Below, piece after piece: positions 25,666 through 30,813 of a DNA stretch of 32,000 bases. The stretch comes from Wigglesworthia glossinidia endosymbiont of Glossina morsitans morsitans (Yale colony) (GTDB taxonomy: Bacteria > Pseudomonadota > Gammaproteobacteria > Enterobacterales > Enterobacteriaceae): the NCBI RefSeq assembly GCF_000247565.1, contig NC_016893.1:180001-212000 (forward strand), in the 5' to 3' direction. How positions within the stretch are numbered: position 1 is the first letter of the stretch; each line of letters starts with the position of its first letter. Under the pieces are notes generated by a model, which was not told the DNA's origin, made no database searches, and worked only from the letters and a program-made list of their open reading frames with translations. A program made the translations under genes and the position numbers.

Positions 25666-26067
<402 letters not shown>

Positions 26068-26074
26068 TTATAAA

Positions 26075-26099
26075 ATGTTAATTTTATCAAAATTAACAT
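26075..26099 (-). terminator. candidate leader hairpin (11-bp stem, 3-nt loop) in the putative S10-operon leader; possible attenuator
   Basis: The minus-strand RNA would be AUGUUAAUUUU-GAU-AAAAUUAACAU followed by UUUAUAAAAAUCGUUUUUU, about 100 nt upstream of the rpsJ ATG. There is only one G-C pair and a short U tract. AT-only inverted repeats arise easily by chance in this composition. Confidence 0.2.
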
Positions 26100-26145
26100 G
26101 TATTTAATGCAAAAAGTTAGTTAATCAAAATATAAAAATTTTATT

Positions 26146-26174
26146 TTTATAATTAAATGTAACTGCAATCTCAA
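26146..26174 (-). promoter_or_regulatory. candidate sigma-70 promoter for the S10 operon
   Basis: The minus strand reads TTGAGA (26174..26169), a 17-nt spacer, then TATAAA (26151..26146). This would give a leader of about 160 nt, similar in length to the E. coli S10 leader. -10-like hexamers are very common in this AT-rich DNA, so support is weak. Confidence 0.25.
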
Positions 26175-26604
26175 TAAGAATCAAGATCTATTTAAAGATT
26201 TTATTTTTTTGTTTACTAAGTAAAAATTTATTTATTTTTTTAATTAAAAGATGTCTTTTTTTGTTACAATATCAATTGTTATTTATTAATCTATTATTTA
26301 ATATTGTTTTAAATAAATTTTACATTATGATACCTTTATTTCATTAAAGTATTTATTAAATTTTTTGTAAAATATAAAATAAACAAAAAATTTCATTTTT
26401 TTTAATAAGTTTTTACATAAAATTAATAAAAATTAAAACATTTTACCTTGTGTTTCTATACGTATAAGTATTTGTACGATAAAATTTTATGCAATAAAAA
26501 ATTTAATTTTTTAAGCGACAGTCAATTCGATTTTTTATGTAATTAAGTATATAATGAATAATTATTTAATACTTTATATATTTTATAGTACTTGAGATAT
26601 TTTT

Positions 26605-28550: not shown

Positions 28551-29525
28551 TTAAAGATTATGTTTCAGAGTTTTTTTATGTATTGTTGGGATAGAAATAA
28601 TTAATCTTAATCCTTTCAAAGGACCTTTGTCAATTTGAATATTTCCATTATGTTGAAGAATAACTTTTTTTGAAATTGTTAATCCTAAACCTATACCTCT
28701 ATTTTCAGAACGATTATTATCAATTGTGTAGAAAGGCTGAAAAACTTTTTCTCGTATATTTTTTTTAATTCCCGGACCATCATCGTCTACGATAATAACA
28801 ACCTGACTGTTTCGCATATAAAAAGCAACAGAGACTTTTTTATTAGAATATTCTATTGCATTTCTAATAATATTTTCTAGTGCACTTTCTAATGCATCTA
28901 AATCTCCTATTATATAACCTTGTTTAGGCAAAGAAATAATTTTTAAAATTTTTCCTTGTTTATCCGCTTCAAATTGCGAATTTACTAAAACATTATTCCA
29001 TAATGTACAAAGTTGTAATAAATTTTTAGAATTTTCTATTTGAATATGATTTCTTGATAAAATAAACAAATTTTTAATTATGTAGTCTAATCTATTTATT
29101 TCAATTTCAATGCGAGATGCTTCGAATACATCTCCGTATCGTCTTCTTATTAATGCTGTAATTAATTTTAATCGTGTCAGAGGTATACATAGCTCGTGCG
29201 AGATATCAGATAATAAGCATTTTTGCATATTTTCAGTGCAATCTAATGCATATATCATATTGTTAAATTTAATACCAATAGATAATATTGATTTTGGTCC
29301 ACGTTCTAATTCTGGAAATTTTTTACGATTACCTTTTGCAACTAAATTGATAGCATATTTAAATTTTTTTGTTATCTTAGATAAATTCCAATATATCCAG
29401 AATATTACAAGAACGTGTACTGCAATAATAAAAATAAAAAATTCAGTTGGATAATTTAAGATTAAATTAAAAAAGTTTGAAGAAATACTTTTAGTATTAA
29501 TAAAATATATTTGATTTTTTTGCAT
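28551..29525 (-). CDS. cpxA: sensor histidine kinase CpxA, N-terminally truncated (TM2-HAMP-DHp-CA only)
   Basis: 324-aa ORF. It has one TM (FFIFIIAVHVLVIFWIYWNL), a HAMP region (FPELERGPKSILSIGIKFNNMIYAL, compare E. coli HPELEAGPQEFLAAGASFNQMVTAL) and the H-box LLSDISHELCIPLTRL. It also has the N-box LESALENIIRNAIEYS, G1 DDDGPGI and G2 GIGLGL. It is colinear with E. coli CpxA from about residue 138 onward. Confidence 0.9.
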   Translation of the reverse strand: MQKNQIYFINTKSISSNFFNLILNYPTEFFIFIIAVHVLVIFWIYWNLSKITKKFKYAINLVAKGNRKKFPELERGPKSILSIGIKFNNMIYALDCTENMQKCLLSDISHELCIPLTRLKLITALIRRRYGDVFEASRIEIEINRLDYIIKNLFILSRNHIQIENSKNLLQLCTLWNNVLVNSQFEADKQGKILKIISLPKQGYIIGDLDALESALENIIRNAIEYSNKKVSVAFYMRNSQVVIIVDDDGPGIKKNIREKVFQPFYTIDNNRSENRGIGLGLTISKKVILQHNGNIQIDKGPLKGLRLIISIPTIHKKTLKHNL

Positions 29526-29873
29526 ATCATGTATTATATATACAAAATTAGATTTAATTCTACAATTTAAGTTATTTTTTGATATATAAATGTAAATTAT
29601 ACTTACAATATAACATTTAATTATGTTTATACTATAATAGTATACTTTTTTATATAAAATAAAAAAATAATTTTGTGCATAATATTTTTTATAATATTAA
29701 ATATTTTTTTTAAAAAATTTTGAATTTCTCATAAAAATGTATGCGAAAAAATTTATAAAAATAATTTATAAAAATCTAAAACTTCTAATAAATTTTACAT
29801 TTTAAGTATTAACTTAAATTTATCATTTTATAACATAAATAACATATATAAACAAAAAATTAAACATGATTAA
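29526..29873 (-). pseudogene. cpxA: eroded 5' portion of cpxA (TM1 and periplasmic sensor region), in frame with the downstream cpxA ORF but interrupted by six stop codons
   Basis: In the same frame as cpxA, an ATG at 29867..29865 lies 6 nt after the cpxR stop. It opens MFNFLFIYVIYVIK and then TGA. Further in-frame stops occur at 29820, 29814, 29802, 29766 and 29697. A hydrophobic relic IIFINFFAYIF lies around 29733..29765, and the last 57 codons (29526..29696) are stop-free. Confidence 0.55.
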
Positions 29874-30569
29874 TTAAGTGGCAGATACCATTAAATATCC
29901 TTTGCCTCTAAGTGTTTTAAACCAAGGTCTTAAATCTTTTCTTGGAGGAAGTTTTTTTCTTAAATTAGAAATGTGCATATCAATTGCTCTATCAAAAGGA
30001 GTTAATTTTTTTCCCAAAACTTCTTGACTTAAATATTCTCTAGATACTACTTGACCTAAATTTTGTGCTAATAAGAATAATAACGAAAATTCTGTACCTG
30101 TTAAATCTAAATTAATATTTCCAAAGCACGCTTCTTGTCTTCCTGGATTGAGATTTAATAAATCAACAAATACAGATGATTGTTTACCGATAGTTTTTTG
30201 AGCAAACCAATATGAACGTCTTAAAATTGCCCTAATACGTGCTATTAGCTCGCGATCGTTAAATGGTTTTGTTAAATAGTCATCTGCTCCCAGTTCTAAT
30301 CCTAGAATACGATCTAATTCGCTGCCACGTGCAGTTAACATAATAATAGGTATATGATGCTTTTTTTGGCGAATTTCTTTTAAAGTATCTATTCCATTTT
30401 TCTTTGGCATCATGATATCTAAAAGTAACAAATCGATTGCATTATTCAATTTAGAAAGTGCTTGTTCTCCATCATATGCTACCTGTATTTCAAATCCTTC
30501 TAATTCTAATAGTTCTTTTAATAAATCAATCAATTCATGATCGTCATCTACCAAAAGTAGTTTATTCAT
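29874..30569 (-). CDS. cpxR: envelope-stress response regulator CpxR (OmpR family)
   Basis: MNKLLLVDDDHELIDLLKELLELEGF...LLLLDIMMPKKNGIDTLK...IMLTARGSELDRILGLELGADDYLTKPFNDRELIARIRAILRR...LTGTEFSLLFLLAQNLGQVVSREYLSQEVLGKKLTPFDRAIDMHISNLRKKL...PWFKTLRGKGYLMVSA is nearly identical to E. coli CpxR. I prefer ATG 30569, which matches the E. coli N-terminus MNKILLVDDD and has AGGGA about 8 nt upstream. The ORF-track ATG 30575 adds 2 residues. Confidence 0.95.
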   Translation of the reverse strand: MNKLLLVDDDHELIDLLKELLELEGFEIQVAYDGEQALSKLNNAIDLLLLDIMMPKKNGIDTLKEIRQKKHHIPIIMLTARGSELDRILGLELGADDYLTKPFNDRELIARIRAILRRSYWFAQKTIGKQSSVFVDLLNLNPGRQEACFGNINLDLTGTEFSLLFLLAQNLGQVVSREYLSQEVLGKKLTPFDRAIDMHISNLRKKLPPRKDLRPWFKTLRGKGYLMVSAT

Positions 30570-30813
30570 ATACATTTTCCCTATTATACATAATTAACGC
30601 ATTATAATATTTTATTTTCTTTAATATTGAAAATTTATATCAAATTAATAATTTTTTATAATTTACATAAATTAATTAAATATATAAAATATAGAACGTA
30701 TAAAAGTATGAGAATTTACAGGTTTAAAAAAAAATAAAATAAATATTAAATATAATAAAAAATATATTATATATAATAATATATTTTATTCAAAATTTTA
30801 ATTAAGTAAAAAA

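Follow-up and report, generated by a model that had tools for sequence, protein, structure and literature searches.

A CpxA lacking TM1 and almost all of its periplasmic sensor domain is maintained by selection in Wigglesworthia glossinidia of Glossina morsitans

Introduction

Inhibitory contacts that sensor domains make with each other are regarded as the principal point of control in the sensory histidine kinase CpxA, and cpxA24, an Escherichia coli allele that lacks residues 92-123, shows constitutive, signal-blind activity (PMC11078701). The cpxA101 allele (T253P) is phosphatase deficient and constitutively active (PMC3158067); the published T253 is T252 by our own count of E. coli CpxA, in which residue 253 is Pro. 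In HisKA kinases, the Thr four residues after the phospho-acceptor His (His+4) is predicted to serve in phosphatase activity (PMC10237652). We here examine the cpxRA operon, which encodes the envelope-stress sensor kinase CpxA, in Wigglesworthia glossinidia, the symbiont of the tsetse fly Glossina morsitans (WGm; 719,535-bp genome), in a stretch of 32,000 nucleotides (positions 180,001 to 212,000 of contig NC_016893.1), referred to below as the window. Its cpxA gene encodes a 324-amino-acid (aa) CpxA that lacks the first transmembrane (TM) helix, TM1, and retains only the last ~27 residues of the periplasmic sensor domain.

In Moranella endobia, an endosymbiont of mealybugs, cpxR is kept and cpxA is reported as a pseudogene, and constitutive activation of the regulator was suggested by the authors of that study (PMC3620526). 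A kinase-free route to active CpxR is known, because Yersinia cpxA nulls accumulate phosphorylated CpxR via acetyl phosphate (PMC3158067). Wigglesworthia, an obligate mutualist of a disease vector with a genome of 0.7 Mb, retains very few regulatory systems, and CpxRA is among them. In a transcriptome paper, cpxA is cited as a "sensor histidine kinase" that serves "recognition of environmental stimuli" (PMC5601960), and the WGm genome paper, in which a pseudogene was called only if truncated by at least 50%, does not mention cpx. The gene is already annotated; for the missing sensor, the T252I substitution and the cross-lineage series reported here, we found no description in the searchable literature.

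Results

The ORF (open reading frame) at 28551..29525 on the reverse strand, 324 codons and a stop read from an ATG, lies beyond the end of cpxR at 29874, and its product is identical to AFA41058.1/WP_014353997.1 by exact cluster look-up. GenBank names this protein "two-component regulatory system sensory histidine kinase," and the Prokaryotic Genome Annotation Pipeline (PGAP) names it only "ATP-binding protein." The ORF is a genuine CpxA and no other kinase. The NCBIfam CpxA equivalog NF007007 matched it with 331 bits over profile positions 146-461 of 463, compared to 137 bits for RstB and 131 bits for EnvZ as the runner-up families, which bears out the family assignment of the original prediction, made from the sequence with no database search. 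Its top homologues outside Wigglesworthia were all CpxA, full-length enterobacterial CpxA proteins were 43-47% identical to it over residues ~137-457, and the best solved-structure match was the E. coli CpxA HAMP-DHp-CA fragment 4BIU (E = 4.7e-67, query residues 49-315). The score falls short of the NF007007 cutoff of 486 bits because the N-terminal third (profile positions 1-145) is absent, and the PGAP name goes no further because the score is below this curated cutoff. In line with a truncation, translating through the upstream stops lengthens the NCBIfam match by just 6 profile positions.

The presence of TM1 and the sensor was judged against the Pfam family CpxA_peri (PF16527), residues 31-163 of E. 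coli CpxA. A Pfam scan of the 324-aa protein gave no CpxA_peri match, did not report HAMP at E <= 1, and returned HATPase_c with 77 bits and a weak HisKA match (20.9 bits against a cutoff of 26.9 bits). One hydropathy peak exceeded 1.6, giving a single predicted TM helix, whereas E. coli CpxA has two. The AlphaFold2 (AF2) model, with a mean predicted local distance difference test score of 75.5, has the order TM-HAMP-DHp-CA, with a continuous helix (residues 26-63) that runs into HAMP, DHp helices at residues 78-130 and 134-164, and an alpha/beta CA domain. On the reverse strand, residues 1-27 (29445..29525) are the residual C-terminal stub of the periplasmic domain and align with E. coli residues ~137-163. 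They are followed by the TM helix homologous to E. coli TM2 (residues 28-50; 29376..29444), assigned from hydropathy and the AF2 model; the predicted distance of about 30 residues between the start and TM2 is thus 27. The HAMP domain (residues 51-103; 29217..29375) aligns to that of 4BIU and carries Ile in place of the conserved Pro189. The DHp domain (residues 104-170; 29016..29216) contains the H-box SDISHELCIPLTRL, and the CA domain (residues 171-324; 28554..29015) contains the N, G1 (DDDGPG), F, and G2 (GIGLGL) boxes, whose columns are invariant in the CpxA alignment. The protein is probably single pass, and the charge of the stub side (+2/0) versus that of the cytoplasmic flank (+8/-2) favors an N-out topology.

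Three further Wigglesworthia loci were recovered for comparison: one from the Logan assembly of SRR14633898 (L002, also L084), that of the NCBI metagenome-assembled genome (MAG) MAG-1 (GCA_030827005.1; L001), and that of W. glossinidia brevipalpis (BA000021.3; L083), here W. brevipalpis. A scan of genome contigs for further Wigglesworthia returned the MAG-1 contig only, the other matches being unrelated histidine kinases. The gene order metG, dcd, cpxR, (cpxA), gpsA, grx of WGm is the same in all three loci. Below, "three lineages" refers to WGm, L002, and MAG-1, with W. brevipalpis, which has no cpxA, as the fourth. In WGm, L002, and MAG-1, cpxR is directly upstream of cpxA on the same strand. 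The cpxA ORF of L002 has 322 aa and is 93% identical to that of WGm, and that of MAG-1 has 392 aa and is 79% identical. Full-length cpxA was found in none of the sister loci (L002, MAG-1, and W. brevipalpis).

The kinase half is maintained by purifying selection, as had been proposed. Pairwise ratios of nonsynonymous to synonymous substitution (dN/dS; Nei-Gojobori) for the core were 0.161 (WGm-L002), 0.144 (WGm-MAG-1), and 0.179 (L002-MAG-1), falling inside the range of 0.02-0.35 obtained for six neighboring genes over the same three pairs. Between WGm and L002, there were 42.7 synonymous differences per 199 sites versus 30.3 nonsynonymous differences per 767 sites. By domain, the ratios were 0.15-0.19 for HAMP, 0.04-0.16 for DHp, and 0.11-0.16 for CA, compared to 0.34-0.56 for the outside tail and TM helix together and 0.34-0.53 for stub residues 1-27. 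An ORF of 322-392 codons is open in the three lineages at synonymous divergences (dS) of up to 0.75, the GC content is 25% in the core versus 11% in the 348 bp upstream, and RNA-seq reads of the G. pallidipes symbiont map to cpxA (PMC5601960). Of 189 alignment columns with at least 97% invariance across 107 full-length CpxA proteins, 80 are replaced in the 324-aa protein, and the Wigglesworthia lineages keep 106-109.

The catalytic motifs had all been taken to be retained. This holds for the phospho-acceptor His and the N, G1, F, and G2 boxes, but the H-box has Cys for R251 and Ile for T252. His110 (codon CAC; 29196..29198, reverse strand), equivalent to E. coli H248, sits in SDISHEL; it is kept in WGm and L002, and the codon is TAT (Tyr) in MAG-1. 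Cys113-Ile114 (codons TGT ATA; 29184..29189, reverse strand) replace R251-T252 of the H-E-x-x-T phosphatase motif, and the H-box reads SHELCI where orthologues have SHELRT. Both R251 and T252 are invariant in 107 of 107 full-length CpxA proteins. Replacement of the His+4 Thr by Ile is common to all three lineages and therefore predates their split, and R251 is Cys in WGm and L002.

The 348 bp between the cpxR stop and ATG 29525 had been interpreted as the sensor half of cpxA, decayed in place by point mutation, rather than as a random spacer. The underlying observations were reproduced: an ATG lies at 29867-29865, in-frame stops follow at 29823 (TGA) and at 29820, 29814, 29802, 29766, and 29697 (all TAA), the last 57 codons before ATG 29525 are stop free, and 439 codons run from ATG 29867 to the stop of the gene. 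However, a coding signature is confined to the 69 proximal codons, and the distal 141 bp is spacer-like. We refer to the proximal 207 bp (29526..29732, reverse strand) as segB and to the distal 141 bp (29733..29873, reverse strand) as segA.

segB, apparently an abandoned coding sequence, begins with the ATG at 29732-29730 and has a single TAA (29697-29699) in the cpxA frame, versus 7 and 10 stops in the other frames. Dinucleotide shuffles gave an expectation of 7.8 ± 2.6 stops (P = 0.0012), and the stop-free run is thus above chance, as had been estimated. The MAG-1 counterpart has no stop over 85 open codons (P < 0.0004), and ATG 29732 corresponds by homology to the GTG at which the 392-aa ORF of MAG-1 starts. 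MAG-1 has ATA at the position of the WGm and L002 start ATG and no other canonical start before the TM helix, and its translation must therefore begin within segB or at its head. In the MAG-1 protein, 96 residues precede the TM helix and include 19 Lys/Arg, so that export of this region is unlikely and the topology of this form is uncertain. In L002, segB has frameshifts and 2 stops, among them a TAA 15 codons ahead of the shared ATG. In-frame stops are depleted from segB in all three lineages. The dN/dS of segB is ~0.47, and 22 of 72 residues are identical. In the simplest interpretation, segB was coding until recently as a weakly constrained leader, which would have been kept stop free because the essential core lay downstream and would have been released when initiation passed to the internal ATG in the lineage of the morsitans group.

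segA resembles an ordinary AT-rich spacer. It has 5 in-frame stops versus 4.5 expected, no frame bias, a GC content of 11%, and p-distances of 0.20 to L002 and 0.40 to MAG-1. Taken as a whole, the 348 bp resembles other spacers both in GC content (11% versus 9-16%) and in p-distance (0.14-0.20 to L002 and 0.36-0.40 to MAG-1), and it has frame-breaking indels of lengths 2, 1, and 2 relative to L002. The peptide MFNFLFIYVIYVIK, proposed as a relic of TM1, is not exceptional, as its hydrophobicity is matched or exceeded by 6.5% of stop-free 14-mers translated from window spacers; the ATG that opens it is out of frame in L002, which is 93% identical, and MAG-1 lacks this ATG. The proposed likeness to the end of the periplasmic domain reaches just 2-6 residues beyond ATG 29525.

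The length of the locus was, as predicted, colinear with that of E. coli. Between the stops of cpxR and cpxA, the locus measures 1323 nt in WGm and 1311 and 1339 nt in the other Wigglesworthia loci with cpxA, versus 1370 nt in E. coli, a value that results from the 4-nt overlap of cpxA with cpxR in that species. This geometry and the segB coding relic make decay in place the parsimonious interpretation, and segA would then be the former TM1 and first part of the sensor. Frame-breaking indels are seen in addition to point mutations, and homology to the sensor half was not recovered in any lineage. Matches to the N-terminal half of CpxA picked by eye from a MAFFT alignment (IIRNYI/IIRNFI and FFKK/WWRR) were tempting and were not significant.

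Between cpxR and cpxA, promoter-like sites were not in significant excess (31 versus 24.9 ± 4.2), no terminator was found, and Rfam gave no match. The fold of the spacer RNA (29516-29873, reverse strand) was only marginally better than that of shuffles (z = -1.89; 3 of 100 shuffles folded equally well) and may reflect AT palindromes.

The cpxR gene of WGm (29874..30569, reverse strand) is full length (231 aa), matches NCBIfam CpxR NF008199 with 424 bits (cutoff, 341), and has a dN/dS of 0.02-0.04. D51 and the other receiver residues of CpxR are kept in all four lineages. In W. brevipalpis, cpxA is absent, with only 458 bp of 4.8% GC between cpxR and gpsA (L083:4697-5154). A search of this spacer for a cpxA remnant gave nothing by tblastn and only low-complexity AT matches, on both strands, by blastn. 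cpxR is kept there as an orphan (83% identity). Upstream of cpxR is dcd, in the place where E. coli has cpxP, and no partner such as cpxP is next to the operon.

With respect to the start of cpxR, the mechanically called ORF begins at ATG 30575 (MYMNKL...), whereas the database protein and the E. coli alignment begin at ATG 30569 (MNKLLL...), which has an AGGGA motif upstream. The nonsynonymous divergence of cpxR (window 29874-30575; L083 4001-4696) is 0.117 for W. brevipalpis-WGm versus 0.035 for MAG-1-WGm, a ratio of 3.3 versus 1.9-2.7 in neighboring genes, and constraint on CpxR may have been mildly relaxed in the lineage from which cpxA disappeared.

The window is AT rich, with a GC content per kilobase of ~16-34%. 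In the whole window (1-32000), there were no tRNA genes and no Rfam family at the gathering threshold, despite large ribosomal-protein operons, which have leader RNAs in E. coli. An unusually long (~585-627 bp) spacer of ~14% GC (26020-26604) separates a rhodanese-like gene from rpsJ, where the ribosomal-protein cluster begins; Rfam gave no match to this spacer, and its length is conserved in L001 and L002. A 114-aa ORF on the forward strand (29110-29454), antisense to the HAMP and DHp regions of cpxA, is probably a by-product of coding-strand composition and not a gene.

Discussion

The reading that we favor, as the probable one, is that the truncated CpxA has stayed under selection through a stepwise loss of its sensor and that its output is signal-blind and kinase biased. 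The cpxA gene of the WGm cpxRA operon has lost TM1 and the periplasmic PAS-like sensor domain, probably in steps, of which the first ~140 bp after cpxR, a long-decayed spacer, would be the older trace, and the next 207 bp would have stayed an ORF until recently, being still open in the sister lineage without the downstream ATG. Selection maintains the 324-aa product, which would be translated from ATG 29525 and comprise a 27-aa outside tail, TM2, HAMP, DHp, and CA. The sensor domain normally holds CpxA off, and the phosphatase Thr is now Ile; given the two changes, CpxA is most likely signal-blind and biased to kinase over phosphatase, and CpxR would be kept phosphorylated constitutively. By analogy to cpxA24 and cpxA101, a constitutive-on output insensitive to CpxP and NlpE is plausible. 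The hard-wired regulon of the original prediction gains from the loss of the phosphatase Thr (T252I), but fits less well with the loss of the His in one sister lineage and of cpxA in W. brevipalpis.

Several observations weigh against this reading. With regard to the lost sensor, a hidden Markov model (HMM) of CpxA residues 1-138 scored the upstream translations no better than 500 shuffles, with 1.1 bits for the MAG-1 extension, a value reached by 57 of the 500, and hhalign found nothing upstream, aligning only from residue 76 of the MAG-1 protein onwards. Alignments to a local full-length HMM (107 CpxA proteins) start at profile position 136-140 in all lineages. No Shine-Dalgarno-like motif precedes ATG 29525, for which reason this start codon is one that we infer; 12 of 39 window genes are likewise without one. 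With regard to the output, kinase activity, and not phosphatase activity alone, could be lowered by R251C, T252I, and the replacement of the HAMP Pro. CpxR boxes (GTAAA-N5-GTAAA) number 13 in the window versus 9.9 expected, with none near cpxR. W. brevipalpis has a phosphorylatable CpxR and no cpxA, indicating that the kinase is dispensable. In MAG-1, the phospho-acceptor His has been replaced by Tyr (L001:4538-4540) through a two-base change, CAC to TAT, with the ATP-binding motifs intact, and the identical Tyr-bearing protein is found on three contigs. This protein has evolved no faster than that of WGm (13 versus 14 unique changes in a Tajima comparison) and keeps 108 of the 189 invariant sites versus 109 in WGm. 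A Tyr at this position without rate acceleration suggests that the selected function may not be kinase activity; the change is either very recent, or the selected function is not autophosphorylation.

It is conceivable, and we offer it tentatively, that the clade shows the stepwise dismantling of a two-component system around an indispensable response regulator, with the sensor lost first, then the phosphatase Thr, the His (MAG-1), and the whole gene (W. brevipalpis). CpxR, very strongly constrained throughout, would then be active independently of signaling by its cognate kinase, through acetyl phosphate or in a phosphorylation-independent manner, and the MAG-1 CpxA, conserved without its His, would have a nonkinase role. 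We consider it unlikely that the core is selected for a role without autophosphorylation, such as binding or sequestering CpxR, acting as a residual phosphatase or phosphate sink, or serving a structural role in the membrane. The H248Y protein of MAG-1, with its ORF and ATP-binding motifs intact, its rate not above that of WGm, and its invariant sites retained equally, speaks for this explanation. However, WGm and L002 keep the His, the Glu, and all ATP-binding boxes, the loss of the phosphatase Thr in three lineages argues against a phosphatase role, and the His-to-Tyr change could be too recent for a substitution-rate signal.

Another explanation, in our view distinctly improbable, is that the truncated CpxA is still a regulated sensor, rewired rather than hard-wired, working via its TM helix, outside tail, or HAMP. 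The TM helix and tail have been retained in three lineages with a dN/dS (0.34-0.56) below 1, the HAMP domain is well conserved, and cpxA is among the genes with a >1.5-fold difference in transcripts per million between host sexes (PMC5601960). Yet no other part of the protein is as weakly constrained as the tail and TM helix, no cpxP-like partner adjoins the operon, where dcd is found instead, and sensor-domain lesions in E. coli give signal-blind alleles (PMC11078701).

Neutral drift of the whole of cpxA as a recent pseudogene, the 324-aa ORF being a leftover, is very hard to sustain and is already contradicted. The stops in the 5' part, the failure of PGAP to call CpxA, the loss of cpxA in W. 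brevipalpis, and the pseudogene reported in Moranella (PMC3620526) are compatible with it; nevertheless, we reject it because the dN/dS of the core is low (0.14-0.18) and RNA-seq reads map to cpxA, a transcribed gene that is open in three lineages and has 25% GC in its core versus 11% in the decaying flanks. Assembly or sequencing error hiding a full-length cpxA has practically no chance of being right, since only the general difficulty of AT-rich homopolymer runs speaks for it, while the same truncated layout in the complete WGm genome, the Logan assembly of SRR14633898, and the NCBI MAG, which are independent assemblies, excludes it, and six stops and 11% GC are not removable by a few corrections.

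The description of cpxA as a gene for the recognition of environmental stimuli probably needs revision, because the protein has lost its known sensing module and carries a changed phosphatase motif. The locus is a rare natural counterpart of the laboratory cpxA* alleles. The graded series of sensor-less, His-less, and gene-less states could serve to test how a response regulator stays functional as its kinase erodes in genome reduction.

Compared to full-length CpxA (NF007007; 4BIU), the WGm protein shares orthology over residues ~137-457, synteny with cpxR, and the HAMP-DHp-CA organization, but lacks TM1 and CpxA_peri (PF16527). Like E. coli cpxA24 and other periplasmic cpxA* alleles, it has an intact TM2-HAMP-DHp-CA core and a lesion in the inhibitory sensor domain. 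In contrast to cpxA24, in which 32 residues are deleted, WGm CpxA is without TM1 and roughly the first 136 residues, so that two membrane passes have become one; cpxA24 is a laboratory mutant, whereas the WGm allele is natural, fixed in its lineage, and kept by selection. As in cpxA101 (T253P) of E. coli and Yersinia, the Thr at His+4 is substituted, but by Ile and not by Pro, with an effect predicted by analogy, and R251 is also replaced, by Cys. In EnvZ T247R (envZ11), the Thr four residues after the phospho-acceptor His is replaced by Arg, where WGm has Ile. Both Moranella endobia and Wigglesworthia have reduced endosymbiont genomes that keep cpxR while cpxA degenerates. In Wigglesworthia, unlike in Moranella, the core is an intact ORF under purifying selection, and several stages of loss are seen side by side.

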